Shown here: positions 6,836-61,293 of the stretch, piece by piece
Layout: each line of letters opens with the position of its first letter
Position numbering within the stretch: position 1 is the first letter of the stretch
Program-made: the position numbers and the translations under genes
DNA from: Promethearchaeota archaeon
Lineage (GTDB): Archaea > Asgardarchaeota > Lokiarchaeia > Sigyniarchaeales > SOKP01
Length of the DNA: 64,000 nucleotides
NCBI GenBank assembly: GCA_048938855.1
Contig: JBHLLT010000014.1
Span: forward strand, 18,230-82,229
Direction of reading: 5' to 3'
Notes under the pieces: model-generated
Told to the model about the DNA's origin: nothing
What the model saw: only the letters and a program-made list of their open reading frames with translations
Database searches by the model: none

Positions 6836-7513
6836 TCATTCATTTGTAGGAAATTTGGCATTTGGAGGTTTAATTTTTTCTCTTTTAGCTAATTCTTCTG
6901 AAAGTTCTTTTTTTAAGTCAGCTAATTTATCTTCGTCTCCTCCTATCTCAATACTCTTTTTATATACACCCTTTATTGCTGTATTTAATTTTTTTTGTTG
7001 TTTTTGAAATTCCTCTTCTGCTTTTTTCAGTTTTTCCATTGGCGCAGAATTTTTCAAAAGTTTAACATAACTGAACTGTTTTTTACCTAGTAATTCACGT
7101 TCTTTAGCAACGCGCAACTTTTCCTTTATAATATTTAACTCTTCTTCTGCAACTTTACTATCTAAGTACGCTATTTTTCTTTGAACCTCTGCAATTTTAT
7201 TTTTGATCGCTGCAATCTTTAAGCTGTATATTGCATAATCTTCTTCAGATTTTAGATTATTATTAGAAAAAGCTAGGATATCTTTTACTTGTTGTTTGCT
7301 CTCCACTAACTTCTTATTTTTTTCAGCTAAAGTTTGTATAAGCTTAGCTAAATTCATTTCATTTTTAACAAGAATTTCCCCTGCTTTAACGCTTTTTAAT
7401 GTTTGTATAGCTGTGTTTTTTGAATCTTTGCATATTTTTTTTTCTCTTTCTGCAATTTCTAAATTTTTTTGTGCTATTAATTCGATATTTTCAATATTTT
7501 CGATGTTAATCAC
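6836..7513 (-). CDS. Three-helix coiled-coil protein, paralog 1 (BAR-like candidate)
   Basis: Colinear similarity to 7576-8229 and 9287-9955; C-terminal KLADLKKELSEELAKREKIKP. The start may be ATC at 7504. Confidence 0.8.
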   Translation of the reverse strand: MINIENIENIELIAQKNLEIAEREKKICKDSKNTAIQTLKSVKAGEILVKNEMNLAKLIQTLAEKNKKLVESKQQVKDILAFSNNNLKSEEDYAIYSLKIAAIKNKIAEVQRKIAYLDSKVAEEELNIIKEKLRVAKERELLGKKQFSYVKLLKNSAPMEKLKKAEEEFQKQQKKLNTAIKGVYKKSIEIGGDEDKLADLKKELSEELAKREKIKPPNAKFPTNE

Positions 7514-7575
7514 ACCCTTTTTATTTCTTTTGCGATTATCTTAATCTTAAGAAAAAAATTAAAATTTAGGATTTA

Positions 7576-8229
7576 TTATTCAGGTCTGATTTTTTCACGT
7601 TCGGTTAATTTTTCAGAGAGTTCTTTCTTGAGATCCGCCAACTTATTCTGTTTTCCAACAATATTTTTATTCAAATCTATCGCGTTGGTTTCAAGTTTTG
7701 TTAATAATCTCTGAATACCAAGATATGCCTCTTCAACTTTAGAAATTTTATCACTAGGTGCATTAGCATTCATTAATTTTACGTATTCCATCATTTTTTT
7801 GGCTAAATTCCCCCTTTCCTTAGCTTCATCAAGTTTTTTATTAGCAACTTTTACTCTTATCTCGGATATATCCGTCTCCACATATGCAATCCTTTTTTGG
7901 ATATCAGCGATTTCAGTTTGAATTTCTGCAACTTCTTGGTTGTATCGCGCTTGTGCTCTCTCCGCTTTTAAAATTTCATCACCAATTTTTAACATGTCTT
8001 TTACTTTTTCCTTCTTTTCAACTAACTTTTTACTCTTATCTGTTAATCTCTCTCGCACTTTTGCTACTTCAATTTCATTCCTGGCTAGCATTTCTCGAGC
8101 TTTAGCTCTTTTTACTGATTGTTTTGCTAATACTTTCATTTCACTAGCTGTTTCTCTTTCAATTTTAGCTAAATTTGAATTCTCTTCTGCTATTTTTTCA
8201 AATTTTTTAATCTCTTCCATTTTAAACAC
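7576..8229 (-). CDS. Three-helix coiled-coil protein, paralog 2 (BAR-like candidate)
   Basis: Ala every 7th residue; C-terminal KLADLKKELSEKLTEREKIRP. Likely ATG start at 8220 after GAGGTG. Confidence 0.8.
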   Translation of the reverse strand: MFKMEEIKKFEKIAEENSNLAKIERETASEMKVLAKQSVKRAKAREMLARNEIEVAKVRERLTDKSKKLVEKKEKVKDMLKIGDEILKAERAQARYNQEVAEIQTEIADIQKRIAYVETDISEIRVKVANKKLDEAKERGNLAKKMMEYVKLMNANAPSDKISKVEEAYLGIQRLLTKLETNAIDLNKNIVGKQNKLADLKKELSEKLTEREKIRPE

Positions 8230-8301
8230 CTCTTTTCTTAATTCCCTTTTAATTTTAACATGATAAATTTAAATATTCTATTAGAAATACTTCAATTTAG
8301 A

Positions 8302-8469
8302 TTAACTATATATGTCATCATATGTTTCTACTTCTTTTTTGTCATTATAAATTGTGTCAAATTCCTCATTATCATCATGATCTTCATTATCATTAGAAGA
8401 TTCATCTTCTTCATATTCGTCATATTCATAATTATATTTCTTCTTCTTCTCTTTGTTTTTTCTTTCCAT
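8302..8469 (-). CDS. 55-aa acidic microprotein with basic N-terminus
   Basis: Manual translation MERKNKEKKKKYNYEYDEYEEDESSNDNEDHDDNEEFDTIYNDKKEVETYDDIYS (22 D/E, 7 Y). Absent from the ORF track; co-oriented with the coiled-coil genes. Confidence 0.6.
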   Translation of the reverse strand: MERKNKEKKKKYNYEYDEYEEDESSNDNEDHDDNEEFDTIYNDKKEVETYDDIYS

Positions 8470-8541
8470 TTTGGCTTTTTTACATCCTTAATTCTGTTGT
8501 TTTGTACTTGTCACTATATAATGATTACATGATATTTAAAC

Positions 8542-8557
8542 GTTTTCAATTGAAAAC
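8542..8557. promoter_or_regulatory. Perfect 16-bp palindrome, candidate operator in divergent promoter
   Basis: GTTTTCAATTGAAAAC between the acidic microprotein gene and the RHH regulator gene. Confidence 0.45.
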
Positions 8558-8642
8558 AAATCACAGAAACGATAACCTTATATATTTTGATATCATTGTT
8601 TGATATAAAATAGTTATTTAAAAATGAAAAATCACCTGAAAT

Positions 8643-9197
8643 TTGATGACAAAAAGTAATTTTCTTGGATTTAGACTTTCAGATGTAGTACTTAATAAAC
8701 TTGAGCTACTTGCAAAACAGGAAAATAAAACACGTGGATTGATTGCAAAAGATGCTATCGAACAATGGCTCAATTTAGAATTATTTAATCAAACCAATGA
8801 AATGATAATGATATCAAAATCTATCTTTTCTAAGATCCTTTCTCACTTAGATGATCATACTATGGAGATTATTGCTAAAGATTTTGCAGATTTATTCTCA
8901 GATATAATGAAATTCTCAACTGCGAAACCTATGAATGAAGAAACCTTGAAATCACATACAACTTTTTTAATTAATTTTTTTGGTAAAAATGGATTAAAAT
9001 GGTTTAATACACTTGACGTTCAGAAAAGAGAAAATCTTTTCATATTTAGAGGTTTACACGATATGGATGAGGTTTATTCCCATTTTTTTACAGAATTTTT
9101 TAAGTATCTCCTATCTCAACATTTTGAACTAGATTATACAACAAAATTAGAAGAAAAAACATCTAATTTAGTCCATCTTGAATTTAAAATTAAATAA
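8643..9197 (+). CDS. Ribbon-helix-helix (CopG-like) regulator with C-terminal putative ligand-binding domain
   Basis: N-terminal FLGFRLSDVVLNKLELLAKQENKTRGLIAKDAIEQWL is a typical RHH pattern. Confidence 0.75.
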   Translation: MMTKSNFLGFRLSDVVLNKLELLAKQENKTRGLIAKDAIEQWLNLELFNQTNEMIMISKSIFSKILSHLDDHTMEIIAKDFADLFSDIMKFSTAKPMNEETLKSHTTFLINFFGKNGLKWFNTLDVQKRENLFIFRGLHDMDEVYSHFFTEFFKYLLSQHFELDYTTKLEEKTSNLVHLEFKIK

Positions 9198-9286
9198 GAT
9201 TTAAAAAACAAAAATTAATGTATAAATAAATTTTAATTTTCCTAGCTATAATTTATTGATAAATTCCAATTTATAGAACAGTTATT

Positions 9287-9955
9287 ATGAAGGATTTAAA
9301 TATTATAGAAAAAGAATCTCAAAATAACTTGAAAATTGCTCAGTTTGAAAAAGAATTAGCACTAAAATCAAAAATTAATGCGTTAGCTGAAATTAAAAAA
9401 TCAAAGGCAAGAGAGACCTTAGTAAAAATTGAATATGACATTGCTGACATAAAAAAGGATTTAGCTGAAAAGAGAAGAGTATTAGCTGTTGAAAAATCAG
9501 TAATTAAAAAAAATCAAATTTTAGATTTTTCAGAAGAAGAATTAAAAAATGAAAATAATTATGCCATTTATAACGAGAAGATAGCAGAAAATCAAAAACA
9601 AATTGCTGAAGTTAATAAAAAAATAGCTTCAACCGAAAAGCAAATTGCTGATCAAAAATTAAAATTATCTGAAGAGAAATTAGATGTAGCAAAAGCACGA
9701 GAAAAATTATCAAAAAAACAAAATCTTTATATCAAATTAGCTGGTGGAGCTGCCTCAGAAAGTAAAATTTCGAAAGCTAAAAATAATATGGAAGAACAAA
9801 AAAAAAATTTAATAAAACAGAAAAATGATGTGCTGGAGAAGGAAAAAGATATAAAGAAAAAAGAGAATAAACTTTCCGACCTGAAAAAGGAACTTTCTTT
9901 AATATTAGGAGAAAGAGAAAAAATTAGACATCCAGGAGTTATATTGGCAGAATAA
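9287..9955 (+). CDS. Three-helix coiled-coil protein, paralog 3 (BAR-like candidate)
   Basis: Same heptad architecture; KARETL, YAIYNEKIA and KLSDLKKELSLILGEREKIRHP match the other paralogs. Confidence 0.8.
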   Translation: MKDLNIIEKESQNNLKIAQFEKELALKSKINALAEIKKSKARETLVKIEYDIADIKKDLAEKRRVLAVEKSVIKKNQILDFSEEELKNENNYAIYNEKIAENQKQIAEVNKKIASTEKQIADQKLKLSEEKLDVAKAREKLSKKQNLYIKLAGGAASESKISKAKNNMEEQKKNLIKQKNDVLEKEKDIKKKENKLSDLKKELSLILGEREKIRHPGVILAE

Positions 9956-10030
9956 TTTTTAAATCTCAAGTATTCCATCTAATTTGAGAAAGTTTTTTAT
10001 AAAACTAAATTAGAAAAAATTGTTAGTTTC

Positions 10031-11122
10031 TTAAATCCATCTTTTTCTTTTAAAGAAATACAACATAATAAGAGATATTGCTACCATCACGATTATTAAA
10101 ATTGGATATGCGATGGGAGAAGAAAATTCGGGCATATAAATAAAATTCATCCCATAAAAACCTGCTAGAAATGATATTGGTATGAAAATTGTTGATATAA
10201 TCGTTAAAACTTTCATAATATCATTCATTCTATTGCTCACGCTAGACAAATACATATCCAACATTCCAAAAATGATATCCCGATAATTTTCTAAAAGATC
10301 ACTAATTCTAAAAACGTGATCATATATATCTCTCAAATAGATCTGTAAATCTACTTTTATTAGATGTGATTGTTCACGCTGCAATTTATTGATTATTTCT
10401 CTTATTGGCCAAATTGACTTTCTTATTTCAATTGAAGATCTTTTCAATTGATAAATAAGCTGTAAAGTTTTTGGTTCCGGATTCTTTATTAATAAATCTT
10501 CAATATTTTCTATATCCTCACCTACTTTTTCCAAAATTACAAAATAATCGTCTATTATTATATCAATTAAAACATAAAAGAGATAATCTGCTCCCATAAA
10601 TCGAACTCTTCCTTTTGGAACTTGTATTCTCTCATAAATAGGATCGAAAAGGTTAGTATCTCTCTCTTGGAATGATATTACAAAGCTTTCTCCTAAAATC
10701 AGACTAATTTGTTCAAATTCAATATCTTCTTGTTCTTTATTCCAGACTAATTTGTTTAATACTGCGAAAATAAAGTTTCCATAGTCTTCTAATTTAGGTC
10801 TTTGATTCTGATTTAAAATATCTTCCAATACGAGAGGATGTAAATCAAATTGGCGACCAATCTCTTCAATGACTTTTTCTTCTGCAAGGCCATATACATC
10901 AATCCATCTAACTGAAGGTTTTTCAATTTGAGTAAGATCTATTTTAATATCCTTAAATTCTTGTATATTAAAACGGTCTTCAGTATAATCTGTTACTTTG
11001 ATTTTAATTTTTTCTTTTAACTTATCCCCTGTATAAATTAAAGTTCCCGGAGGAAGTCCAATCTCTTTCTTTCTTTTGCTAGATGGGACCCTTTTATGTA
11101 ATGGTCGAGATAATCTCCTCAA
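10031..11122 (-). CDS. corA: Magnesium/cobalt transporter CorA
   Basis: GLPPGTL, LHPLVLEDI, QRPKLE and YGMNF signature; two C-terminal TM helices. Confidence 0.95.
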   Translation of the reverse strand: MRRLSRPLHKRVPSSKRKKEIGLPPGTLIYTGDKLKEKIKIKVTDYTEDRFNIQEFKDIKIDLTQIEKPSVRWIDVYGLAEEKVIEEIGRQFDLHPLVLEDILNQNQRPKLEDYGNFIFAVLNKLVWNKEQEDIEFEQISLILGESFVISFQERDTNLFDPIYERIQVPKGRVRFMGADYLFYVLIDIIIDDYFVILEKVGEDIENIEDLLIKNPEPKTLQLIYQLKRSSIEIRKSIWPIREIINKLQREQSHLIKVDLQIYLRDIYDHVFRISDLLENYRDIIFGMLDMYLSSVSNRMNDIMKVLTIISTIFIPISFLAGFYGMNFIYMPEFSSPIAYPILIIVMVAISLIMLYFFKRKRWI

Positions 11123-11273
11123 TCTTATTCACCTAAAAAAATTATGGTTTCTTTTGATTAATTTATTAATAAATTAGCTTTTTAAATAAAAGTTTACCAA
11201 AGATTATTTTATTAAAAAATTTGAATTTTCCGAAGAGGATAATCTAAAAAATTCTTTTATTTTTGAGTTAAGT

Positions 11274-11909
11274 TTAAGGATCCAAAGATATACCGTATTT
11301 TTTTAAATCTTCTATTAATTTTTCAGTATAGTAATAATGTATTCCCTTCAATCCTAAAGATCTTGCTATTCGTATATTTTTTTTCTCATCATCGATTAAA
11401 ATTGCCTCAGAAGGTACGCATTCTAAATGTTTTATTAATTCTTCATAAAACTTAATATCATCTTTATTCATATTATAATCAAAACTTAATACAGTATCAT
11501 CAAAATATTTTAAAACTCCACATTTTTTTTCTAAATATTCTATACGTTCCCTTATATTCCCACTAAATATCAATAGTCTATAATTATTTTTTCTCAATTT
11601 CTTTATTAATTCTTCAATACCATAGTGAACACAATATGAGCCAAACCAAATATATCGTGTATGCTTTTTTTCTCTTTTGTTAATTCCTAATTTTATGAAC
11701 AGCTTTTCCTCAAATTCATCAATAGTTATTAATCCTCTACGTAAAAGATTTCCTTCAGAACTAGGGTTATCACTAAAAAATTCTCGTAGTAATTCTTCAT
11801 TTTCAATGTCATAAATTTCTTTAATCTTCTCGATGGCTAAAAAAGAACCTGGTGTAAAATACACCCCTCCTAGATCGAAGATAATTGTTTTTATTTTATC
11901 ACGTATCAT
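11274..11909 (-). CDS. HAD-superfamily hydrolase
   Basis: FDLGGV motif I; IDD..N motif IV. Confidence 0.85.
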   Translation of the reverse strand: MIRDKIKTIIFDLGGVYFTPGSFLAIEKIKEIYDIENEELLREFFSDNPSSEGNLLRRGLITIDEFEEKLFIKLGINKREKKHTRYIWFGSYCVHYGIEELIKKLRKNNYRLLIFSGNIRERIEYLEKKCGVLKYFDDTVLSFDYNMNKDDIKFYEELIKHLECVPSEAILIDDEKKNIRIARSLGLKGIHYYYTEKLIEDLKKYGISLDP

Positions 11910-12068
11910 AATAAATCAAATAGAAATATTATGTATAAAATCATCTAATAACCATTTATATATGATTTAAACAAAATTATTAGGTGTGTTAGAATCCATT
12001 TTAGCTAACTTTAATCTATATGAGTATTTGTCAATCCTTAGTTATTTGCTAATATTACTATAACTTAA

Positions 12069-12890
12069 TTATTTCGAGGGTTCAATACTTTTAACTAGAC
12101 TTGGAGTGCTAATATCAATACCATATCTTTTCATAGAATTCAAAATACTTAACCTTAAATCAGCTAATATTTTCATCAATAACCTTATATCACGAATAAA
12201 TATGAAAAGAGTATATTCAACAGAGAAATTTTGAAATTCTGTTATCCCAACAAAGGGTTCAGGATCTTTTAGTACTTCTGGGATTGAGTTTGCGGCTTCT
12301 AATAAAGCCTTCTCTACTTTTTCATGATCTTCAGCATAATCTGCAGTAATTTTAATTCTTCTTCTAATTACATCTTTCTTGCCAAGATTTTCAGTTTCTT
12401 CTGAGATTAATTTCTGATTAGGAACTGAAATCCTTATACCATCGAAATCAATTAATATCGTAAAAATTAATTTGATTTCATGAACTTTCGCGATTTTATT
12501 GTTATACATTATATAGTCACCAACAACAAAGGGTCTACTTGACATAATTATAATTCCCGCAATTGCGTTTCCAAATGTATTGATTGCAGCAAAGCCAATA
12601 ATAGTCCCTCCAACAAGTGTAAACAAAGAAGTAATTAAACCAATTGCCTCTACGAATTGGACAAGAATCATGCTAATGATAATTAATATTATTACTATTT
12701 TTATGATTCTCTGTAGATTTCTTGCAGTTCGTTCCTCTAATTTTTCTTGTCTTTGAAGTCTTTTAACTTGTTTTTTAAAAATTATGTAAATTATCCATCC
12801 AATTACTATTGCAATAGCGACTGTTAAGATATTTAATAAATTATAAAAAATCCATCCAAATATGACATCAATAATATTTTGAAATAGCAT
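12069..12890 (-). CDS. mscS: Small-conductance mechanosensitive channel (MscS family)
   Basis: 3 TM helices; GFAA...GN.IAG...RPFVVGD, VPN and PEP motifs. Confidence 0.9.
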   Translation of the reverse strand: MLFQNIIDVIFGWIFYNLLNILTVAIAIVIGWIIYIIFKKQVKRLQRQEKLEERTARNLQRIIKIVIILIIISMILVQFVEAIGLITSLFTLVGGTIIGFAAINTFGNAIAGIIIMSSRPFVVGDYIMYNNKIAKVHEIKLIFTILIDFDGIRISVPNQKLISEETENLGKKDVIRRRIKITADYAEDHEKVEKALLEAANSIPEVLKDPEPFVGITEFQNFSVEYTLFIFIRDIRLLMKILADLRLSILNSMKRYGIDISTPSLVKSIEPSK

Positions 12891-13073
12891 TTAATTATCA
12901 CTGATTTAGTTTTAAGATTTTATTTTGTATGATTACTTTTAAACAATTTTCGTATATTAAATAAATTCCAAAGATTTAACTATAAAGTTAAAATTTTTGT
13001 CTCAAAATCTTGGTTAATCAATGTTTTCCTAATTAAATTTATTAATATAGTTCCATAGGAAATTAGTTAATTA

Positions 13074-24290: not shown

Positions 24291-24422
24291 ATTCTTCTTT
24301 ATTTAATTGAAATTCCTTTCTATTTTTCAATAAATCTTTAAATAATTGAAAAATCATATAATAATATTCAGTACGTAAATTGAAAATAAATCTTTCATTT
24401 CTCTCAAAATTTCAATTGTAAG

Positions 24423-24908
24423 GTGGATGATATCACACAAATAGAAAAATTTCATAATTTGAATAGAGACCTTAAAGCTGAGAATCTAATTAGGGAAACT
24501 AAAATTCTTACTATTGGTAGATTAGCTAAAATATTAGTTGATTTATTTGGTTCTAATGAAATATTTAAATCAATTAGTGAAAAAGAAGGGCAAGAAATTG
24601 AAGTATGTTTTAAAGCTTTAAATGAATATTTGACTTTTGTTTTAACAACAGACAGAGAAAATTTTGATTGTTATGCCGATAGGGCTAAAAATCCAGTTTC
24701 TAGAGTTATAATAGCAGTTAAAGAAGATAAGATACTTCAAGTATTCAGTGCGATTGTAAGATCTAAAAATAATATTTTTGGATTGGCTAAATTATTGAAG
24801 TATATAATTCCTGGTAAAATAAGGATCAAAGGCTCATATCTTACCACTTTAAAATGGGTGAGATGTATAATGATAGGGAAGCATAGTATTTATAAAAATG
24901 ATAAATGA
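24423..24908 (+). CDS. SCP2 (sterol carrier)-like domain protein
   Basis: C-terminal GKIRIKGS..TLK resembles the SCP2 GKLKIxG motif; size fits. Confidence 0.5.
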   Translation: MDDITQIEKFHNLNRDLKAENLIRETKILTIGRLAKILVDLFGSNEIFKSISEKEGQEIEVCFKALNEYLTFVLTTDRENFDCYADRAKNPVSRVIIAVKEDKILQVFSAIVRSKNNIFGLAKLLKYIIPGKIRIKGSYLTTLKWVRCIMIGKHSIYKNDK

Positions 24909-38177: not shown

Positions 38178-39038
38178 CTATAATAGAATATTTAAAATTG
38201 TTTGAATTCCACCCGTTTCTTCTAAATATTGAGTAGGCGTCTTTTCTAATATGAATTTTTTCTTGTATACTTCAAAATCAGTTTTTAAATAACATTGAAT
38301 ATGTAGTGGATCGAATGTGTATATAGGATAACATGAAGTAGGATGAGCACCAAAAGGCATTTTGATAACAGCTGTAGTGGTTTGGACAGGTAATTGTGCT
38401 TTTCCTGGCAAATGACGGATATCCTCTGTTTCTACCAATTTTTCACATATAATAATTGTTTCTTTTGCTGTTTTTGCCATATCTGCATCCATCCATACTG
38501 CTCCAGGAATATTACCATTGCCAAATTCGTCAGCATAAGGAATATGTAATATTGCAACATCTAAATCAATTTTAGGTAGTGCCATGATCTGAGTTCCTGA
38601 ACCAAGAGGATCTTCAATTTGTTTAATATCTTTCCTGACTTTTGGCATATCTGTTCCAATAATTCCTTTCAAGGGCATAAACGGAACTTTCAAATAAGAT
38701 GCTCTTAATCCTAAGGCAATTGTGGCTTCGCTTTCCTCCGATATCTTGATTGAGCCTGATTCTACAGCCTGTCGAAAATGTGGAGCCATCCCGAAGATTT
38801 CCATTCCAACGAAACAACTTCTAACTTCAGATACACAAGCTCCTGCTATAAGCATATCGATTTCAATTCCACCTACAAAAGTACACACTGAAAGATTTTT
38901 CTTTTTTTGCCTAATTATTTCCCTGCAAGCTGCAATTGGTTTTCTCCAAAAAGAAAGTCCTCCAAATCCGACAAGATCTCCATCTTTAATGTAAGTTGAG
39001 ATAGCTTCTTCTAAGGACATTAACTTACTAGACCGTAT
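38178..39038 (-). CDS. Family I CoA-transferase alpha subunit (GctA-like)
   Basis: SLEEAI..IKDGD..GG, DMLIAG, DVAILH..AD..GN and PFGAHPT motifs. ORF-track start is 39020; an ATA at 39038 follows a GAGGGG SD-like site. Confidence 0.85.
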   Translation of the reverse strand: MRSSKLMSLEEAISTYIKDGDLVGFGGLSFWRKPIAACREIIRQKKKNLSVCTFVGGIEIDMLIAGACVSEVRSCFVGMEIFGMAPHFRQAVESGSIKISEESEATIALGLRASYLKVPFMPLKGIIGTDMPKVRKDIKQIEDPLGSGTQIMALPKIDLDVAILHIPYADEFGNGNIPGAVWMDADMAKTAKETIIICEKLVETEDIRHLPGKAQLPVQTTTAVIKMPFGAHPTSCYPIYTFDPLHIQCYLKTDFEVYKKKFILEKTPTQYLEETGGIQTILNILL

Positions 39039-39413
39039 TTATCTTCCCCTCATTTTATCCAATTTCTATTAATTAACATTAAAATGATATTAGAATGAAT
39101 TTTTATTAAATTAAAAATACTCCTATTGATGAGTTTTTTTCAAGAAATCCAATATAACTCTATTTTAAGATTAATATTTGCTCAAATTTCAAGAAAATAT
39201 TAACTTTCTTTTGAATTTCTTTAGAAAATGGTAAATTTTATTCTAGATGTTGACATTTCCAATGAACTTAAGGCTTTCAAGAATAAGAATAGGTTTCAAA
39301 ATCTCATAATAGAGCCCAGATCTCATAATAAAGTTATAATAATATTATTTTTGAGAGAATTGGAAATTGAATTACCTAAATTTAATTCAAAATTTATTGA
39401 TCAAAAACTATAT

Positions 39414-40343: not shown

Positions 40344-40959
40344 TTTACTAACCTCTTTTATTATAATTTTTTAAAATGAATAATTTTTTAAAGATAAAAA
40401 TTAAAAATAGAAATTTTATGAAATTCCCTTAATTTTTAAAATATTCTATAAAATGAGAAATTGCATATGTTCTTAAGTTCATTTTTAATTGATTCGATTA
40501 TTTAAACTTTCTCCTTTCCAATTATCTAAAAATTATTAATTCAAATTCCTTGAAATTTAAAACAGAAATAGTAGATCACCTTACGAATAAAAGTCTATAT
40601 AATCTAATCTGAGATATCTTATCTCAAATCCTCTAAATTTCGATAAAAGAATAACTCTTAAAGAAACTGAAGAATCTAATTACCATTTTTGATAAATGTG
40701 ATAAATTGGAACAATTTATTCCCCTTCTTCAGTAACCAATAACTCACAAGTTGCTGATCTTACAAATCTATACTTAATAATTAATTTTCCAATATTTTTA
40801 GGTTTTGAGACCATAATCATTAATCTTCTTTGGATATCTATGTAATAATAGTTGAATTAAATAATTATTAAATGTTTATTTTCACATTCTAATAGGAAAG
40901 AATCAAATAATACGATTATTGTTATATCTATTATAATAAATTACAAGAGGTAATTCACC

Positions 40960-41493
40960 ATTAGAAAGAGACTCAAAGAAGGTCTAGTTCAAGTTTATTT
41001 TGGCCGAGGTAAGGGTAAAACAACTGCTGCAATTGGACAAGGAGTACGTGCTACTGGGCATGGATTCAAAGTATATATGATTCAATTCATGAAAGGAAAT
41101 TATAAATATGGTGAGATAGAAGCCATTAAAAATATTCCCAATTTTGAACTAAAACAATTTGGTAGTCCTGAACTTATAGCAGAACCAGATAATTTTGATA
41201 AAGAAGAAGGAATAAAAGCACTCGATTATGCTAAAGAGATTATTATGAGTGATGATTATGATATCGTTATACTTGATGAAGTGGGAGTTGCAATATCTAT
41301 GAATGTAATTTCTGTAGAACCTGTTTTAGAACTTATAAAAAATAAACCAGAAAAAGTCGAGTTAATCTTGACAGGCGGACCAAAAATGCATCCAAAAATA
41401 AAAGAACTAGCCGATTTAGTAACCGAAATGAAAATGATAAAGCATTATTACTCTTCAAAAGGGATATCCGCTAGATATGGCATAGAATATTAA
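40960..41493 (+). CDS. cobO: Cob(I)alamin adenosyltransferase CobO/BtuR
   Basis: The frame extends upstream of the ORF-track start (41077) through GLVQVYFGRGKGKTTAA, then QFMKG, ILDE, ELILTG and ADLVTEM..KH. Proposed ATT start at 40960. Confidence 0.9.
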   Translation: MRKRLKEGLVQVYFGRGKGKTTAAIGQGVRATGHGFKVYMIQFMKGNYKYGEIEAIKNIPNFELKQFGSPELIAEPDNFDKEEGIKALDYAKEIIMSDDYDIVILDEVGVAISMNVISVEPVLELIKNKPEKVELILTGGPKMHPKIKELADLVTEMKMIKHYYSSKGISARYGIEY

Positions 41494-45859: not shown

Positions 45860-45941
45860 AACCTAAAACATAATTACTACTTTTTTATTTTTATATTATA
45901 ACTCTTAAGATTATTCTTATTGTATTGCTTGGTGAATTTGT

Positions 45942-47165
45942 ATTAAAAAGAAAATTAGTATTATTATTGTAAGCGTTATAGTATTAATAACTATATTTGC
46001 TGTAGTATATCTTAATCTTCCTACTAACAATCTTAGTGTTCAAAATTATGATATTGATTTAAATTTTAATGGAGAAAATGCTTATTCCTACGTGGAAGAT
46101 CAGTTAGGTATAGGTTATCGAATTCCTGGAACTCAAGAACGTGTAAATTGCGCTAATTATTTTATAGATAAATTTTTGGAGATAGATAATAATTTCACAT
46201 ATTTTCTTCATAATTTTACAGTCCAATCAACTGATTGTCAGAATCTGTTGTTTAAATTAAATGAAAATACAACTAACATATTGATTCTAGGAGCTCATTA
46301 TGATTCCAGAGCCAGAGCAACAAGAGATTTGATAAATACTTCTGCCCCTGTTCCTGGGGCCAATGATGGTGCGAGTGGAACTGCAGTGCTAATAGAATTA
46401 GCTCAAAATCTGTATAATAGGAGAGAGAATCTTAGTTGTCAAATATGGTTTGTTTTTTTTGATGCTGAAGATCAGGGCTATGATGTAGGCCCCGGTATAC
46501 CTGGGTGGGGATGGTGTGAAGGATCTCATCAATTTGTTTCAGATATTAATAGTTTTTATGATTCAGGAACAGAAAATTTTGATTGTATGATTTTACTCGA
46601 TATGGTTGGTGGTGAAAATTTAAAATTTATCAATGAACAATATTCTACCTCCTCATTATTGAATGAACTATTTACTATCGGAAGGAGCTTAGGTTATACA
46701 AGTGCATTTCCAAAATATCCTGTTTCTCAATCAATTTATGACGATCATGTAGCTTTTAGAAACGTTGGCATTCCAACAGCTGACTTAATTATTAAGTTTT
46801 GGAATAGAAATCCAGATTGGCCTTATCACCATACTACTCAGGATAACTTGGCTTATATTTCAAATCATAGTCTTGAGATTACAGGTAAAACTGTTGAACA
46901 ATTCATTTATAATAACTATTTTGATGATCAAAATAATGATTATCAAGGAAATTATCCTTGGACTCAAGATCAAAACCAATTGAGTTTGGAAATTGTTGTT
47001 ATCATTTCAGTAATTCTTGCTTTGGTAGGAATCTCTCTAATCATTATAATATCTTCAAAACAAGTAACAGAAAAAAAACCGAAGTTAATGAGTATTAATT
47101 ATATCGAACTATTTTTGTTTTATAAGATATCCGCACTGGTGACAGAATTTATCCAATTCCGCTAA
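45942..47165 (+). CDS. Exported, membrane-anchored M28 peptidase (glutaminyl cyclase-like)
   Basis: GAHYDSR, PGANDGASG, FDAED, LDMVG, DDH and HHT..D motifs. The frame extends upstream of the ORF-track start (46092) through FNGENAYSYV and a signal/TM segment to ATT 45942. Confidence 0.85.
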   Translation: MKKKISIIIVSVIVLITIFAVVYLNLPTNNLSVQNYDIDLNFNGENAYSYVEDQLGIGYRIPGTQERVNCANYFIDKFLEIDNNFTYFLHNFTVQSTDCQNLLFKLNENTTNILILGAHYDSRARATRDLINTSAPVPGANDGASGTAVLIELAQNLYNRRENLSCQIWFVFFDAEDQGYDVGPGIPGWGWCEGSHQFVSDINSFYDSGTENFDCMILLDMVGGENLKFINEQYSTSSLLNELFTIGRSLGYTSAFPKYPVSQSIYDDHVAFRNVGIPTADLIIKFWNRNPDWPYHHTTQDNLAYISNHSLEITGKTVEQFIYNNYFDDQNNDYQGNYPWTQDQNQLSLEIVVIISVILALVGISLIIIISSKQVTEKKPKLMSINYIELFLFYKISALVTEFIQFR

Positions 47166-47927: not shown

Positions 47928-48061
47928 TGGTTTATTCTCTTTTCTTATAAATCTCTCATCATCGTAAGAAATTGCATTTTCACCTATAAAAATCGATATT
48001 GAAGTTAATTTAATCTAATAGTTTGATGTATAATTTGGAATTTAAACATTTGTATGTAATT

Positions 48062-53536: not shown

Positions 53537-55642
53537 ATGATCAAAACTGATCATGCTATCTACTATAAATTAGAGGAAAAAAAAATGCATAAAAAAACAA
53601 TAAAAATTAGTTTGATACTTACTGTACTACTTCTATCCACGTTCTTTTCTATTGCAGTAATTTCCTTCGTTCAGGCCAAAAAACCAACATACACTAGTGG
53701 ACCCGTGTATATAGATGAAACAGTTCCAGGCATGACCTGGGCGGATTGGAGTGACGAGTCTTGGTTAAAGGGATCAGGTACTGAAGAAGATCCGTATATG
53801 ATAAAAGATCTAGTCATAGACGCTGGAGGTAACTTTTTCTGTATGCTGATCATGAACTCGGAGGTATACTTTAAAATCATGGATTGCGCTTTTTCTCACA
53901 CTAGTCCCTACGGTTCCCCAGATGGGAGACACGCTGGCTTAATATTAGTCAACACCCAAAACGGTGTAATTTTTAAAAACGAAATCTTTGAGTGCGGATC
54001 CCCAGAGGGTACGGGAAGTGGAATCGCTTTGGTTTCTTCCTTTAACAACAAGATTCAAAAAAATCTATGTTACGACAACGGAGTTGTAGGCATTTATCTC
54101 CAATATTCGAGCAATAACGTGCTACGACAGAATATCTGCGAACGAAACCAATATGGTATAATGGTTTCAGAATGGTCAAACAATAACGAAATTACAAAAA
54201 ACGAATGCTACGAGAATTCAGTATATGGAATTCATGTATGGGGCGAGGCAAACGGAAACACGGTGTCTAAAAATATATGCAGTAATAACGGAGGATCGGG
54301 TATTATTCTTGAAGGAGTTTATGGTAACATGATTGTTGACAACGACTGCAGCGGTAATTCAGCGCCAAATATTTATCTTAGATACTCCGATGATAATGTA
54401 CTAACCGAGAATTTATGCACTGGGAGTTCATGGGGCATCGTCATTAGATGGTCTCACAATAACGATGTAATCAATAACGAATGCGTTGAAAACGGGGAGG
54501 GAATTGTTCTACAAGAGGATTCTAGTGATAACAGAATAGTGAACAATACGTGCGTTAATAATTTGGAGAACGGTATTATATTGATTTTTAGCGCGAATTA
54601 CAACGTGATTGATCACAACGAGTTCTCGGGAAACGGCCTATCAGGCATCTCGGTACAATACTCAGAAGGAAATAGTATAACCGATAATACCTGCAACGAT
54701 AACGGCGAGCAAGGCATCTTCATAAAAGATTACTCGAACTATAATACAATAACGGATAATAACTGCAGCAGAAACATCGATTCAGGAATCGCGGTTCAAG
54801 AATCGAACGGCAATATCCTAATGGATAATTTCTGTAGCGAAAACGTATGGACGGGTATTGGACTCGTGAGCGGAGCGGAACACAACATACTCTACAAAAA
54901 CGAACTTGTCTATAATTGGGGCGGTATCTACTTCTCCCATGTAGGGAATAACGACGCGTTCAGGAACGAGATCAAATACAACACTCATGGAATATTCATG
55001 CATCGAGAATGTTATGATAATATGATATATCAGAACAACATTGTGGATAACGAATTGCAATTGTTTGACTTATCTCCAGGGTTTAATAATTGGTACAATA
55101 TCTATATCTTAGAAGGTAACTACTGGTCTGATTACACAGGTATAGATAGTGACGGAGATGGGATCGGTGATACACCATGGCCAGAAGAAGGATACGATGC
55201 CTATCCATTTATGGATGAAAATGGTTGGGAAATTACGACGCCCTTAGAAGACGAATTACTAAATGCGTGGTTCTATCCTGATTTTAATAGATTAGGCGGC
55301 GGTCGAACGGTATACAATAATAAAACGACCTATTTAATGGTTGGAATGGCACACGGATTTTCAGAAATAGTTCAAGATATTTATCGTCCTCCATATACCT
55401 GTCAACTATGGTTTTATGGAACAGAGGTTTACTTCCAAGGGATGTTTTCGTTTTTCGTGGAAGATTCTCCTTACGGAGAGCCAATATGGTACCACCTGTT
55501 CTATTTAGTAATCCCACCTTATACACTTCTTGAATCAGGACTTCTACCAGGTTGGAATGAATTTCAATGGGAATTAACTTTCTACAGTGGCGGGGAGCAG
55601 CAGTCTTCTGGTATCTTTACGTCATACTTTTATTTAATCTAA
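53537..55642 (+). CDS. Secreted NosD/CASH right-handed parallel beta-helix protein
   Basis: Signal peptide (likely ATG 53585), GSGTEEDPY, many GI.L..S..N.I..N.C..N repeats and GNYWSDY.G.D..GDGIGD.P. Confidence 0.9.
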   Translation: MIKTDHAIYYKLEEKKMHKKTIKISLILTVLLLSTFFSIAVISFVQAKKPTYTSGPVYIDETVPGMTWADWSDESWLKGSGTEEDPYMIKDLVIDAGGNFFCMLIMNSEVYFKIMDCAFSHTSPYGSPDGRHAGLILVNTQNGVIFKNEIFECGSPEGTGSGIALVSSFNNKIQKNLCYDNGVVGIYLQYSSNNVLRQNICERNQYGIMVSEWSNNNEITKNECYENSVYGIHVWGEANGNTVSKNICSNNGGSGIILEGVYGNMIVDNDCSGNSAPNIYLRYSDDNVLTENLCTGSSWGIVIRWSHNNDVINNECVENGEGIVLQEDSSDNRIVNNTCVNNLENGIILIFSANYNVIDHNEFSGNGLSGISVQYSEGNSITDNTCNDNGEQGIFIKDYSNYNTITDNNCSRNIDSGIAVQESNGNILMDNFCSENVWTGIGLVSGAEHNILYKNELVYNWGGIYFSHVGNNDAFRNEIKYNTHGIFMHRECYDNMIYQNNIVDNELQLFDLSPGFNNWYNIYILEGNYWSDYTGIDSDGDGIGDTPWPEEGYDAYPFMDENGWEITTPLEDELLNAWFYPDFNRLGGGRTVYNNKTTYLMVGMAHGFSEIVQDIYRPPYTCQLWFYGTEVYFQGMFSFFVEDSPYGEPIWYHLFYLVIPPYTLLESGLLPGWNEFQWELTFYSGGEQQSSGIFTSYFYLI

Positions 55643-55898
55643 AAACGGCTTATATAGCCAATTTTTTTTTTTCATTTTTCCCTCTGATTCAATCTGATTT
55701 AGTAGAAAAAATGTGTGATATGGGTATCGATCTCGTACGGAATACGCGTTTAGAAGCGATTACAGACAAAATTGGACTTGATACGTTTACTACTTCATTG
55801 AGAGATTCTTTGTTACAACATCTAATTATTTTGATAATATTAAATATAAACTATTCTAATAATATATCAACCACAATGAGTCATTAATCCATTGATTT

Positions 55899-56603
55899 TT
55901 GCCTTTTATGAAGACCTCTACCAAGTATTATATGTTATTGATGTTTTTTTCACTTCTTTTATTCTTTAATTCAATTAATGGGAAATGTAACACAACATAT
56001 GCTTTTCCTGCTGATGAGGGTGATAAATTTACATGGAAATGTACTTATTGTAGTCCTAATTGGAGTGTTTTTTTGGGTGTAGGTTCAAAAGTTGAAATAC
56101 ATATAAACCAGATTTATGAAGGTTCATATATGGAGGCTGAACAAGCTCTAATCGTAAATGTGACCTTAAATTATTATTATAAAGCATCTAATTCTTATGC
56201 AACATTCACTTTTCCATATTATCTAGTTTATGACGATATTTTTCACTATATGCGAATTTTGCATTGCTTAATTCTCCTTTCCCCTATTAATCTAACATTG
56301 GTCGCGGATTATATAATTCGTAGTGGAGATAACGCAACAATTCAAGAAAATGTCCTCAACGTTAATTATGGATATTCTCAAACTGGGCAATATACTTATA
56401 ATGCAAATGGTTTTGCAAAGAAATTTGAGTATAAGGAATGTGGAATTACTCAGTATATCTTAAAACTAGGTGGTAATAATATAACAATTCCTTTTGGATA
56501 TTATCACTTTTTATATATTATAATTGTGACAATTTCACTAGCTTATTTTATTAACAAACATCAGAAAAGTTTAAAAAGATATAAGAAGGGTATTACCATT
56601 TAA
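55899..56603 (+). CDS. Exported protein with C-terminal membrane anchor (Loki-CTERM-like)
   Basis: N-terminal signal; C-terminal IPFGY followed by a TM helix and a basic tail. Confidence 0.65.
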   Translation: MPFMKTSTKYYMLLMFFSLLLFFNSINGKCNTTYAFPADEGDKFTWKCTYCSPNWSVFLGVGSKVEIHINQIYEGSYMEAEQALIVNVTLNYYYKASNSYATFTFPYYLVYDDIFHYMRILHCLILLSPINLTLVADYIIRSGDNATIQENVLNVNYGYSQTGQYTYNANGFAKKFEYKECGITQYILKLGGNNITIPFGYYHFLYIIIVTISLAYFINKHQKSLKRYKKGITI

Positions 56604-56652
56604 ATTTTCAAAAAAGTAAAGCTAATTTAAATTCTTTAGCAAAAGAGGTATT

Positions 56653-58749
56653 CTAAATAACAATTGTTGGTTTTTCTAATCTAGCCCGGCTTAATCCTGT
56701 TGAAAGATCTTTATCAACGATAATTTTTGAAGTATCTATATCCTGAGGGATAGCTGTGTGAGTTATCAGGAAAATTTGAGAAAATGATTTTGATTTAATT
56801 AAATATTTTAGAATTCTTTCTCTTCTCGTTTCGTCTAGCGCGGCTAATGGTTCATCCAATAATAAGAAGTTTATTTTTGGATTTTTTTTAGGTGACTCTT
56901 TAGTAGGACGTATAGAGCCCATTAGCTCCGAGATTGCTAATCTTAAAGCAATTCCTAGGGCAGTTCGATCTCCTCCTGAAAGAACCTCAATTGATTCATA
57001 TTCACCATTATAATTGTCTCTAATTCTCAATGATAATCCTGTTTTCTTAGTTCCACTGAGATCAAGTAAGAGATCACTGTATTGACCAGAGGTGAAATCT
57101 TTAATATATTTATCTGTACTTAATGCAATATTTTTAACTAAACGCGTGACGACCATATATTCTGTTACAAATCTACGGACAAACTCTTTTGCTTTAGTTA
57201 TATGTTCAAGATCAATTTCATGCTCATCTATTTTACGTTGTATATCTATCATTTTTTGAATTTCATTACGTAAAGCTATTATTCTTTCATTATTTTTTTG
57301 AAATTTCAATTTATTCTGGTCATGTTCATTTTTAGTTGCCTCTAATTCCGCTGAAATTCTTTCTTTTTTAATTATTAACTCTTTTACTCCTTCAACACTT
57401 GAATCTTCAAATTTATCACCATGTTTTAATAGAAAATCTTCCAATGCATTATCAATTTTTTTCAATTCAACTTCATGTTTCTTATAATTCTCGAAATCTT
57501 CTTGAAGTCCTTGGTAAATAGTTATCGTTTCTTTGATTTTATCTAAATCAGTTTGGCTGGTCTTTATTTTCTTATCAAAATCCGATAAGATTTTTGAGAT
57601 TTTCTCAATTTTTTCTTGGTTTACTAAAATTTCATTATTAAATTTTTGAATTACTTCAATATAGTGTTCTTTTGTTAATTCACTTTGACAGGTAGGGCAT
57701 TGGGCTAACTCTTTTCCCCCTCCTTTCTTTACAAATTTCAAACTAGTTTCCATTTCTTTTATTGATTTTTTATTATCTTCGATTCTTCCTCTTGTTTTTC
57801 CTAAACCTTTAAAAGTAGCGTTTTTTTTTGATTCTAAATCCTCTTTATTCTTTTGAAGTTCAATTTTCTTTGAATTTAGAGTTTCAATCTCGGTATTAAT
57901 GGATTTTTCCGAGCTAAAGTTTTCTAAATTTAAATTAGTTTTCTTAATTTTAGTTTTAAAATCATTATAATAAGATTGAAATTTATCTTTCAAAACTAAA
58001 TTCTGATTGTATAACTTTTCCAACTCAGAGATTAATTCTTTAGAAGGTAGACTCTTTTTTTCCTTAGACAGAGTGGCAATAAGTTTTTCTTTTTCCATTG
58101 AATCTTTTTTAAATTGATTATTTTCTTTTTCAATGTCTTCTATATCTTTCTTAATTCTTTCAATAGGTACTCTCGACTTTTCAAGCTTTTCTTTTTCAAA
58201 TTTTTGTCCTTTAAATTTACGATCTAAAAAAGAAAGAGCATTGTCTATTATATTTAATCTAAATAAATCAACAATCATCTCTCGTAGTTCTGCTCCTTTT
58301 CTGTTTGCTATATCTTCCACTTCACCCTGTCTTACAAAAACAGTGCTCATAGCCTGTTCAGAAGATATCTCAAAGAATTTTTCAACATTAAAATTCTTTA
58401 TTTCATTGTAAATATTCCTATTTTTATTCCACTCAAAAAATTTAGCGGTGATACTACCTGTTCTTCCCCATTTTCGATAAATATAGTATTTTTTTTTATC
58501 TAATGTAAAATAAACGTAAATCTCTGCTTTATCTTGTACACCATATGTGATAAATGAAGCTGCATTCCGTCCTTTGAATATTTTAGGGCCAAAAAAGGCA
58601 AAAAGAATCCCTTCAAGAATAGTAGATTTTCCATAAGAATTTTTGCCACTAATCAATATTAAACCTTCAGGAAATTCATCATTTTTTTTAGGTATGTCTA
58701 AATTTTTATAGCCCATGAAGTTTTTAAATGTAATTTTTGTGATATGCAT
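56653..58749 (-). CDS. rad50: DNA double-strand break repair ATPase Rad50
   Basis: Walker A GKNSYGKST, Q-loop RQGE, zinc hook CPTC, LSGGD signature and LDEP. Confidence 0.93.
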   Translation of the reverse strand: MHITKITFKNFMGYKNLDIPKKNDEFPEGLILISGKNSYGKSTILEGILFAFFGPKIFKGRNAASFITYGVQDKAEIYVYFTLDKKKYYIYRKWGRTGSITAKFFEWNKNRNIYNEIKNFNVEKFFEISSEQAMSTVFVRQGEVEDIANRKGAELREMIVDLFRLNIIDNALSFLDRKFKGQKFEKEKLEKSRVPIERIKKDIEDIEKENNQFKKDSMEKEKLIATLSKEKKSLPSKELISELEKLYNQNLVLKDKFQSYYNDFKTKIKKTNLNLENFSSEKSINTEIETLNSKKIELQKNKEDLESKKNATFKGLGKTRGRIEDNKKSIKEMETSLKFVKKGGGKELAQCPTCQSELTKEHYIEVIQKFNNEILVNQEKIEKISKILSDFDKKIKTSQTDLDKIKETITIYQGLQEDFENYKKHEVELKKIDNALEDFLLKHGDKFEDSSVEGVKELIIKKERISAELEATKNEHDQNKLKFQKNNERIIALRNEIQKMIDIQRKIDEHEIDLEHITKAKEFVRRFVTEYMVVTRLVKNIALSTDKYIKDFTSGQYSDLLLDLSGTKKTGLSLRIRDNYNGEYESIEVLSGGDRTALGIALRLAISELMGSIRPTKESPKKNPKINFLLLDEPLAALDETRRERILKYLIKSKSFSQIFLITHTAIPQDIDTSKIIVDKDLSTGLSRARLEKPTIVI

Positions 58750-58755
58750 AATAGC

Positions 58756-60063
58756 TTAAACCTCTTTTTCTTTTTCCATAAATTGAAGAGCCTTTTTTAT
58801 AGCATCCATTCCAAATTTCGCTAATTTATCTACATCATAATGAGTTCTGTCTTCACTCAATTTTTCTAGAACAAATTCTTTAAATTCGTCATCAGGTTTC
58901 TCAAGTATGTAATCTAGGATTACTCCAGCACTAATATCGTCCTCAAACATTTCAGAAGTATCAGAAATTTTCCAAATTATTTGTAATATATTGTATTTTT
59001 CAGACTGAGAAAAACAATTTCTCCTTAACTTCACCATTAATTCATTTATTTGCCATGTTTTTTCAGTTGTCATTTCGCCATAAAAATTAAACTTTAGCCT
59101 AGCTGATGTTTCTGAATTAAAACCACCTTTTATAGAATATTTATCTAATTCATTTTGTACCCATATTTCTAAATCTGATGGTGATTCTTTTGGATTAGTA
59201 TCATGGGAAATCAATTCAAAAGACCGATTGAGTAAACCATCAGTAAATATTGTTTCAATATTTAATTCTCTTGTTTTTTCATTTATATCAACGATTAAAT
59301 AGGATTGATTTTCAAGTTTTTCTTTAAAATTCATAGGTAATAGACTTCCTGAATAGTAATGGTTCTTTGAAACTCGCTTAAAACCATGTTCATGCCCGAG
59401 TGCTACGTAATCATAATTAAAATCATTGGAATTAACCTTACTATGTAAAGTTTCATCCGCTGTTGAGCCATGAGCTATAGCAATATTAAGAAAATCATTA
59501 TCTTTAGGTTGCTGATTCTGAATCCAATTATCATACGCAGATTCATAGACTTCGAAATTTTTAAACTCAAAATAGGGAAATAAATAAAATCTTACCTTCT
59601 TATCGGGAAATTCTATTGATAAAGAATTATTGGATTTAATCGCTTCAATCAAATCTCTCTCTTTAAAATAAAATAAATTCGGATACTGATCTTTATTAAT
59701 ATGTGATTCAAATGGAGTATATTCATAACCTCGGAATACTCCATGATTTCCTTCAATATATATAAATGGTACTTGATTATTTGTATTTTCAAAGAAGATT
59801 TTTAATCCTTGAATTAAAGCTCTTCTTGCTGGTTCGGTTGGGGGATAAGAACTATATTTTGAAGGAAGATGAAAGATATCTCCACAATGCACTAAAAAAT
59901 CGATATCATTTATATTAGAAATCTCAGTAATTACATTAAGAAATGTATCATAAAGTTCTTGTTCAAATGGTCTTGAATAGTTTTCAATTGCCCATTTATT
60001 TATAGTTCCCCTTCTAGGACGATATCCCAAATGAGTATCTGCCATATGGATAATTTTAACCAT
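58756..60063 (-). CDS. mre11: DNA repair nuclease Mre11
   Basis: DTHLG, GDIF, GNH, HG, GHEH and YSGS motifs. Confidence 0.92.
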   Translation of the reverse strand: MVKIIHMADTHLGYRPRRGTINKWAIENYSRPFEQELYDTFLNVITEISNINDIDFLVHCGDIFHLPSKYSSYPPTEPARRALIQGLKIFFENTNNQVPFIYIEGNHGVFRGYEYTPFESHINKDQYPNLFYFKERDLIEAIKSNNSLSIEFPDKKVRFYLFPYFEFKNFEVYESAYDNWIQNQQPKDNDFLNIAIAHGSTADETLHSKVNSNDFNYDYVALGHEHGFKRVSKNHYYSGSLLPMNFKEKLENQSYLIVDINEKTRELNIETIFTDGLLNRSFELISHDTNPKESPSDLEIWVQNELDKYSIKGGFNSETSARLKFNFYGEMTTEKTWQINELMVKLRRNCFSQSEKYNILQIIWKISDTSEMFEDDISAGVILDYILEKPDDEFKEFVLEKLSEDRTHYDVDKLAKFGMDAIKKALQFMEKEKEV

Positions 60064-60075
60064 TATATCACCTTT

Positions 60076-61293
60076 TTAATCTTCTAAAACTTTATGTCTC
60101 CATGATTCAGAATATTTTTTTGTTCTTTCATCATATTTTAATTCCATGAATTTGCTTTCTAACTTGTTATATTCAGAGACTAATAATGTACTTGCTTCAT
60201 GAGCTCCTTTTAGACATAAAGGATACCCTCTGGGAGAATAAGGTATTAAATTCTGTAATATATATTTAGCATCTTCTGTATCTAGGAAGTCTGGTATATC
60301 GAATCTTAGAGCTGTGCTATTCTCCTGTATTCTAGTGATATATGCTTTACTTTTAGTATAAGCTGAAAGGTCTGGCATTTCTACTAAAAAATTCTTTTCT
60401 TTCATAATTTCAGACCAAATAGGCAGAATAAAATTACCTTGTGCATCCCTTAATCGGCATGTTTTGGAAATTGCATAATAATTTATATTATAAGAGTCAA
60501 CAAATTTAAAAAAGAATTTAGTAAAAGCTTGTGGTGGAAAAATATGATGTCGGAACATTTGAATACCATCACCTAAAAATACAACATTTCTAAATTTCCC
60601 CCAATTACTTTCATCTTTAATTCTTATAAGTGATTTCAAAATTTCATCAGCAGTTCTTATTCTATCAATTACATGAGCAATAGATGGATAATAAAAGGCA
60701 TGGTTATCTATAGCGCTCTTTATTTTATTACTAAAAGTCGTTTCATACCATTCTTCTAATTCATCAATATAACTTTTCAAATCTCCGATATAGAAGTACT
60801 TTTTAATTGCTTTTACGAAATTTTCAATAACAGTCTGATAAATAATCAACTTATGTTCATTATCTTCAATATAAGTTGTAATTGGTTTATACATTATTTT
60901 TTCAATATTGTATTTTCCATCTATCAAAGTGATTTGACCTTCTCCAAATTTAAAAGATCCTAATATAGCATAAGTTCCAGGTAATGTATTCGAGCTCTCA
61001 TCAAACCCAATAATTTTAAATGTTTTATCTACATAATCATTTAAGTGCTTTTCAATTCTTATATATGGCATTTTGCTAAAGTGAGCACCCATATTTCTGA
61101 GTTTTTCTTCTGCGCTACTCGTAGGATCAGGATCCTCTAACTCTTTTTTTTCTTCTTCTGTCCATGTAATCTTATTAGACTTAATATACTCCATAAATTC
61201 TTTAATATCAGGACTAAAAGATTCTTCAGGTCGATAATTCATCGACTCTTCCAATGAAATTAATTCAAAATCGAACGAAATTAATATCACCAA
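60076..61293 (-). CDS. nurA: NurA 5'-3' nuclease
   Basis: FDES, DG, SK and GYP..L..AHE motifs; operon context. Confidence 0.82.
   Translation of the reverse strand: MVILISFDFELISLEESMNYRPEESFSPDIKEFMEYIKSNKITWTEEEKKELEDPDPTSSAEEKLRNMGAHFSKMPYIRIEKHLNDYVDKTFKIIGFDESSNTLPGTYAILGSFKFGEGQITLIDGKYNIEKIMYKPITTYIEDNEHKLIIYQTVIENFVKAIKKYFYIGDLKSYIDELEEWYETTFSNKIKSAIDNHAFYYPSIAHVIDRIRTADEILKSLIRIKDESNWGKFRNVVFLGDGIQMFRHHIFPPQAFTKFFFKFVDSYNINYYAISKTCRLRDAQGNFILPIWSEIMKEKNFLVEMPDLSAYTKSKAYITRIQENSTALRFDIPDFLDTEDAKYILQNLIPYSPRGYPLCLKGAHEASTLLVSEYNKLESKFMELKYDERTKKYSESWRHKVLED

Follow-up and report, generated by a model that had tools for sequence, protein, structure and literature searches.

The 64,000-nt stretch of DNA analysed here, referred to as the window, occupies C60:18230-82229 of a metagenome-assembled genome from the Lokiarchaeia (Asgard archaea) that comprises 3.95 Mb in 93 contigs, with 30% GC and 7% contamination. 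At several genes of the window the place behind the Shine-Dalgarno sequence (SD) at which a start codon is expected holds an isoleucine codon, ATT, ATA or ATC (AUU, AUA or AUC in mRNA, together AUH). Ortholog comparisons and codon counts make it very probable that a subset of genes in this genome and its family starts translation at AUU, AUA or AUC. Most likely at least 2-3% of the genes, including six of the seven flagged in the window, are predicted to start at an AUH codon 6-8 nt behind a strong SD.

The 3' end of the 16S rRNA reads ...GGATCACCTCCT. The GGTG and GAGG motifs in front of the genes are therefore true anti-SD complements, and the full SD is (A)GGAGGTGATC, of which GGTGA is the 3' half. 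Spacing is counted in nt from the G of GGTG to the codon. The preliminary description of the window had named six clear starts for comparison, and all of them were located where it placed them, 6-8 nt after GGTG. At 5896 (5882-5898, forward strand) AGGTGAT is followed after 7-8 nt by ATG, and the same anatomy is seen at 8220 (reverse strand), 11122 (reverse, TTG), 17688 (forward), 44163 (forward) and 60063 (reverse). The seven isoleucine codons that it had singled out were likewise recovered, 6-8 nt after GGTG, GGTGA, GAGGT or GAGGGG, so that AUH sites share both complementarity to the 16S 3' end and an AUG-like spacing. As it had also noted, an in-frame GTG can be part of the SD itself, as at 7513, 8229, 17679, 24423 and 61290.

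Candidate AUH starts in the window

The seven sites were compared with orthologs in about 24 congeners, which support six of them (7504, 39038, 40960, 45942, 47972 and 61281). Across the supported sites AUH is either kept or exchanged for ATG, the alternative GTG, TTG or ATG codons are not conserved, and stop codons lie just upstream. In the window genome itself 40960, 45942 and 47972 have no canonical start (an ATG, GTG or TTG) before the conserved coding sequence. At 39038, 61281 and 7504 this holds only in some orthologs, and at 24432 it does not hold. The preliminary description considered only two starts, those of cobO and the M28 peptidase, to be forced by homology. Both stand, and the restriction to these two does not, as orthologs also back 39038, 47972, 61281 and 7504. 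A genome in 93 contigs with 7% contamination could in principle owe such sites to assembly or sequencing errors, or to decaying pseudogenes. However, the same AUH codons occur in about 20 independently assembled genomes, some of them single-contig, with the conserved frames intact. Because the sites recur in many independent genomes assembly error is excluded, and we give this explanation as a whole next to no probability.

cobO, which encodes ATP:corrinoid adenosyltransferase (gene 40960-41493; Pfam CobA_CobO_BtuR, 6e-57), has the SD GAGGT followed by ATT 40960 (40947-40962, forward strand). A TAA lies two codons upstream of the ATT, and the P-loop GRGKGKTT precedes the first ATG (41077). GAGGT with ATT is also found in G007, G011 and G018, and in G013 ATT stands behind the weaker AAGGT. 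The remaining congeners have ATG 1-3 codons upstream, without an SD.

The membrane-anchored M28 peptidase (gene 45942-47165; Pfam Peptidase_M28) has GGTGA, with its TGA in frame, followed by ATT 45942 (45931-45944, forward strand). All 21 informative congeners carry ATA (16) or ATT (5) 6-7 nt behind GGTGA, or behind GGTGT or GGTGG, and ATG occupies the start position in 0/21. A conserved transmembrane helix follows the AUH codon. The first canonical codon is GTG 46092, 50 codons downstream of the ATT. In a second genus of the family the site holds ATA or ATC in 12 of 13 genomes, and four of these 12 have no in-frame GTG in the SD.

The product of gene 47109-47972 matches Pfam zinc-ribbon families. 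AGGTGA precedes ATT 47972 (47970-47985, reverse strand), and in 4/4 orthologs ATT lies 7-8 nt behind GGTGA. The alternative TTG 47927 is TTA in two of these four, and an in-frame stop is found 1-3 codons upstream of ATT in 2/4.

Three further genes have both an AUH codon behind the SD and a canonical codon nearby. In gene 38178-39038, whose product matches Pfam CoA_trans, GAGGGG precedes ATA 39038 (39036-39051, reverse strand), which probably starts a CoA-transferase subunit. At the aligned position 11 congeners have ATG, seven ATT and two ATC, the window genome has ATA, and the AUH forms have a stop directly upstream. GAGGGG or GGGGAG is present in 10/10 AUH forms, and an SD in about 4-5 of the 11 ATG forms. 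ATG 39020 is replaced by ATA, ATT or TTA in five species, and the residues R-x-S-K-L between ATA 39038 and ATG 39020 are conserved.

Gene 60076-61281 encodes a NurA-domain protein (Pfam NurA, a weak match), and GGTGAT precedes its ATT 61281 (61279-61291, reverse strand). At the aligned position ATT is found in nine genomes, ATA in two, ATC in one and ATG in one (G035). In five species the SD supplies an in-frame stop, its TGA, shortly before this codon. TTG 61293 and GTG 61290 belong to the SD, and neither is conserved.

In gene 6836-7504, GGGTGTGAT precedes ATC 7504 (7502-7517, reverse strand), the likely start of a coiled-coil protein. As the preliminary description had observed, the isoleucine aligns with the methionine of both coiled-coil paralogs. 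In orthologs and paralogs the codon is ATG or TTG, and G007 also has ATC. GTG 7513 is GTT, GCT or TGT elsewhere.

The seventh site, ATC 24432 behind GGTG with a 6-nt spacing (24421-24434, forward strand), had been proposed as a start and is not supported. Of 13 orthologs, 12 retain GTG 24423, and the thirteenth (G035) has ATG in its place, a change that destroys GGTG. The 6-nt spacing between 24423 and 24432 is constant in 13/13 orthologs. The ATH codon at 24432 is conserved, which is equally expected for a conserved isoleucine residue. No Pfam family was matched by this gene. Judged from these alignments, GTG 24423 is more likely than ATC 24432 to be the start.

Several features of individual sites weigh against initiation at AUH. 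The cobO ATT is preceded at 16-30 nt by a TATA-like box (tattataataaatta; window 40924-40959), which stands equally far before the ATG of the SD-less orthologs. The arrangement in these ATG-starting orthologs suggests that their transcripts are leaderless, and from the position of the box the SD of the window gene may lie outside the transcript. One ATT-type ortholog without the TATA-like box still keeps the SD. For the CoA-transferase, the ATG six codons downstream of 39038 could serve as an alternative start. In the window genome 7504 and 61281 have an in-frame GTG or TTG a few codons upstream, so dual or alternative start use may occur at both.

More generally, the isoleucine codons might be chance sense or non-coding triplets that follow SD-like strings in AT-rich DNA, with the nearby GTG, TTG or ATG codons as the real starts. 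ATT and ATA are abundant in a genome of 30% GC, the 24432 locus has a conserved GTG that is ATG in one species, and a canonical codon lies within 3-6 codons at 7504, 39038 and 61281 in the window genome. At cobO, the M28 peptidase and 47972, however, no canonical codon precedes the conserved coding sequence, and at the sites that do have canonical alternatives these are not conserved in orthologs, several of which have a stop directly upstream of AUH. The genome-wide counts given below also bear on this explanation.

Beside the NurA gene, directly downstream of it, lies a gene with a Mre11-type-phosphoesterase-like N-terminus (ATG 60063), and the two are flanked by two genes of ~600-700 aa (window 56653-63060, reverse strand). 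This is probably a HerA-NurA-Mre11-Rad50 repair cluster; the Pfam check covered NurA alone.

AUH codons behind the SD across the genome and in relatives

The preliminary description had proposed a genome-wide tally of codons behind anti-SD matches. For this purpose the heads of stop-to-stop open reading frames (ORFs) of at least 100 codons were scanned for an exact SD 5-mer, and the in-frame codon was tabulated by spacing. A strict set was restricted to heads with no canonical codon upstream and none within the next 20 codons. At a spacing of 7 nt the strict set contains ATT 21 times, ATA 10 times and ATC three times, so that 34/70 codons are AUH, compared with 28/326 at same-phase spacings of 10-22 nt (Fisher p=1.2e-13). 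The reshuffled codons TAT, TTA and AAT occur at 7 nt zero, one and one times, respectively.

The wider set gave the same picture. Among ORF-head codons before the first canonical codon, an SD 5-mer at 5-9 nt is found for 88 of 1657 AUH codons and for 167 of 9443 others (ratio 3.0, p=3e-15). The AUH peak (6-8 nt) coincides with the ATG peak (5-9 nt) and is sharper, with a spacing of 7 nt in 42 of the 88 candidates. The 88 sites are unrelated in sequence and are not repeats of one another. Segments from the AUH codon to the first canonical codon look coding: their codon usage score is 0.447 per codon (coding reference 0.423), and the non-coding heads before SD-led ATGs score 0.118. ATT and ATA are very common triplets in this genome, and AUH is nevertheless enriched over composition-matched background, 3- to 10-fold over reshuffled codons and other spacings. 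In the light of this enrichment, chance placement of isoleucine codons after SD-like strings is very improbable, and the computational evidence supports the claim that this lineage uses AUH unusually often for SD-directed initiation.

CTG also seems enriched at the SD-optimal position of ORF heads (8/135 with an SD 5-mer, against a background of 1.85%), although the numbers are small.

Two other measures were tried and discarded. Raw trinucleotide counts after every GGTG or GGAGG gave no SD peak even for ATG and were uninformative because coding periodicity dominates. Taking the first 40 codons and computing how often each codon type is preceded by an SD diluted the signal, since codons 2-3 of true ATG starts also fall at 5-9 nt.

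For 33 of the 88 candidates GGTGA itself provides the nearest in-frame stop, its TGA, two codons upstream of AUH. The heads could thus continue an upstream frame by readthrough or recoding of this TGA, and a tRNA-SeC predicted by aragorn would suit recoding. Alternatively they could arise by termination-reinitiation coupling with loose start rules, as might be imagined for 61281, which sits 15 nt behind the preceding gene. The frame open upstream of the stop is, however, short (7 codons in the median, and 50 or more in 6/88), and orthologs carry other stops (TAA, TAG) at other positions. Reinitiation is further disfavoured because a same-strand ORF ends within 30 nt upstream of only 14/83 AUH candidates, compared with 113/261 SD-led ATG starts. 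Taken together, readthrough or reinitiation is very improbable as the source of these heads. By the same counts, an operon-internal position is less common among SD-led AUH candidates than among ATG starts with an SD.

To estimate the number of AUH starts, the best SD-led candidate within the first 30 codons of each ORF was determined, and the ORFs in which it is AUH were compared with three abundance-matched control codon sets. There are 269 such ORFs and ~180 were expected. The excess of ~89 is equal to 2.6% of the 3432 ORFs, or 14.7% of the starts that are strongly SD-led, figures that hinge on exact SD k-mers and simple ORF rules, which counts against leaning on them heavily. The AUH share grows with SD length and reaches 19.7% for 6-mer SDs. 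We estimate that about 60-90 genes or more are involved, which amounts to ~15% of the starts with a strong SD. The true figure should be higher because sites with a 4-mer SD, such as 39038, go uncounted. A canonical start with an SD 5-mer is present in just ~15% of ORFs, which agrees with reviews stating that SDs are not prevalent in Lokiarchaea.

The same estimator was applied to samples from two other families of Lokiarchaeia, and the AUH signal was several-fold weaker in both. It gave 0.2% of ORFs in G026 (same order; 1.2 Mb of a single-contig genome) and 0.7-1.2% in G045 (0.8 Mb), the latter a noisy value; the comparison thus consists of partial samples of two relatives, a further point of caution. 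These lower values suggest that the trait is much stronger in the genome studied here, and it may still be present in the two relatives.

aIF1, the initiator tRNA and a possible feedback

Since the preliminary description had linked AUH initiation to start-codon fidelity and suggested inspecting aIF1, the initiation factor gene was examined, and the lead was fruitful. The single SUI1/aIF1 gene of the genome (G000 C31:6344-6667, outside the window) itself lacks a canonical start: a TAA is followed by two codons and then ATT, and no ATG, GTG or TTG occurs between the stop and the zinc-knuckle cysteines. In almost all of ~40 genomes of the family (at least six genera) AGGTTGTGA is followed by ATT or ATC in aIF1, and a TGA lies upstream in frame. 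The gene of the fidelity factor thus has a non-canonical start that is conserved among relatives. In other Lokiarchaeia families the start is likely ATA in three and TTG in two. The spacing is longer than at the other sites, ~10 nt after GTGAT, which fits SD-directed initiation less well.

The preliminary description had spoken of relaxed, SD-directed AUH initiation. Frequent SD-directed use is upheld and relaxed fidelity is not, as the zinc knuckle and the basic loop of aIF1 are conserved (R-K-W-G-R, compared with K-R-R-F-G-K in M. jannaschii; loop residues from PMC6237735). Comparison of these residues with M. jannaschii gave no hint that the factor is crippled. AUH is retained by some genes in every species, a pattern that resembles selected weak or regulated starts more than sloppiness.

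One way to read AUH would be a dedicated second initiator tRNA, or an initiator with a changed anticodon, that recognizes AUH as cognate. A combination of the Rfam tRNA model and a pattern search located one initiator-type tRNA (G000 C31, minus strand), which bears an intron, A1:U72, the GGG/CCC stem and the anticodon CAT. No initiator with a non-CAU anticodon was found among the tRNAs detected, and tRNA detection is incomplete since most tRNA genes carry introns; for the same reason aragorn finds few tRNAs, 13-24 in runs without and with intron search (13 without). tRNA-Ile(GAT) shows elongator features. The frequent exchange of ATG and AUH at the same codon between species also fits a single tRNA reading both. 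With no positive support found for it, a second or altered initiator is hardly credible. The aragorn prediction mentioned above is a tRNA-SeC(tca).

Initiation by the ordinary initiator tRNA at an SD-placed AUH codon could proceed as follows. The SD duplex would position the AUH codon in the P site, where the CAU anticodon would pair with its first two bases and tolerate the mismatch at the third. The protein would begin with methionine, and output would presumably be below the level obtained with AUG. Near-cognate starts of this type are used for control in bacteria: E. coli infC, which encodes IF3, uses AUU for autocontrol (PMC4705826). In vitro, aIF1 of S. solfataricus discriminates against AUU (PMC4705826). 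Together with the AUU or AUC start of aIF1 across the family, these observations make an infC-like loop the most economical model. By analogy, low aIF1 would allow more AUH initiation, which would restore aIF1 and co-tune the other AUH genes, and such feedback through aIF1 would be the most likely arrangement in this lineage.

More tentatively, the AUH genes could form a regulon, in which dozens of genes with weak starts, aIF1 among them, would have their joint output set by aIF1 dosage through this feedback. We regard this as possible and rather doubtful. If true, it would constitute a genome-scale layer of translational control, built on how strictly start codons are chosen, in archaea closely related to eukaryotes.

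Comparison with known starts and consequences for annotation

GUG and UUG starts are routine in bacteria and archaea, where they account for about 10-20% of genes. They involve a mismatch at the first codon position, unlike AUH, in which the mismatch is at the third. AUH normally makes up far less than 1% of starts, and NCBI table 11 also lists ATT, ATC and ATA as starts. Both classes depend on initiation tolerating a single mismatch with the CAU anticodon.

In bacteria, E. coli pcnB starts at AUU, as infC does. The sites proposed here resemble infC and pcnB in having a near-cognate AUH codon behind an SD that would be read by the normal initiator tRNA, and they resemble infC in that the gene of a fidelity factor has AUH itself, aIF1 with ATT or ATC in this case. 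The bacterial cases amount to a handful of genes per genome, whereas dozens (at least 2-3%) are predicted here. Furthermore, aIF1 is a homologue of eIF1 and unrelated to IF3, and the feedback is only inferred. AUU and AUA starts of S. aureus (infC, cvfC1, ccpN and citZ) need extended SDs and yield ~10-30% of AUG output (PMC13009471). The parallel is close, as those starts require a long, optimally spaced SD and are conserved among relatives, and in the present genome longer SDs go with a larger AUH share and the spacing is sharply defined. S. aureus differs in that four genes were verified by ribosome profiling and reporters; here ~60-90 or more genes of an archaeon are predicted from sequence.

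In eukaryotes, the poor context of its start codon lets eIF1 restrict its own synthesis, as cited in PMC6237735. The homologous factor thus has a weak initiation site of its own in both cases, although in eukaryotes it is an AUG in poor Kozak context on scanned mRNAs and here an SD-led AUU. Ribosome profiling of Haloferax detected near-cognate sites, which were set aside (PMC7261190). Full-text literature searches returned no paper that describes AUH starts for Asgard archaea. AUH starts are already known as a kind; the present case is set apart by their scale, the lineage and the inclusion of aIF1.

Eukaryotes differ from bacteria and archaea in one key respect, start-codon stringency, which is set by aIF1 or eIF1. 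An Asgard lineage in which AUH apparently makes up about one-seventh of the strongly SD-led starts, that of the proofreading factor included, offers a natural system in which to study how stringency is tuned. It is equally suited to the question of how autoregulation of the eIF1 type arose.

Systematic misannotation, which the preliminary description had anticipated, is borne out for gene callers limited to ATG, GTG and TTG. Annotation practice varies, and NCBI has one cobO ortholog starting at ATT. Prodigal ignores ATA, ATT and CTG starts (PMC2848648). Callers of this kind truncate or lose AUH-start proteins in metagenome-assembled genomes of Lokiarchaeia; cobO, for example, loses its P-loop, and the membrane anchor of the M28 peptidase is missed. 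The errors distort alignments of protein families, predicted localisations and counts of pseudogenes, in a group that is intensively mined for eukaryote-like proteins.

A separate irregularity concerns the P-loop codons of some cobO orthologs, which are interrupted by an insertion of ~30 nt (L312:158-187 on a JGI metagenome contig, L020 in G002 and L021 in G004). The insertion is absent from the window gene 40960-41493. An in-frame stop and an 8-bp inverted repeat (ATTACTGT/ACAGTAAT) lie within it, its 3' end (GTAATGCCTA) is conserved, and deleting 30 nt restores G-K-G-K-T. Two possible identities are a BHB-like mini-intron, here in a protein gene, and a small mobile insertion. Gene callers start at an ATG inside it, which accounts for the many 162-aa 'MPKGKTT...' proteins in the databases.

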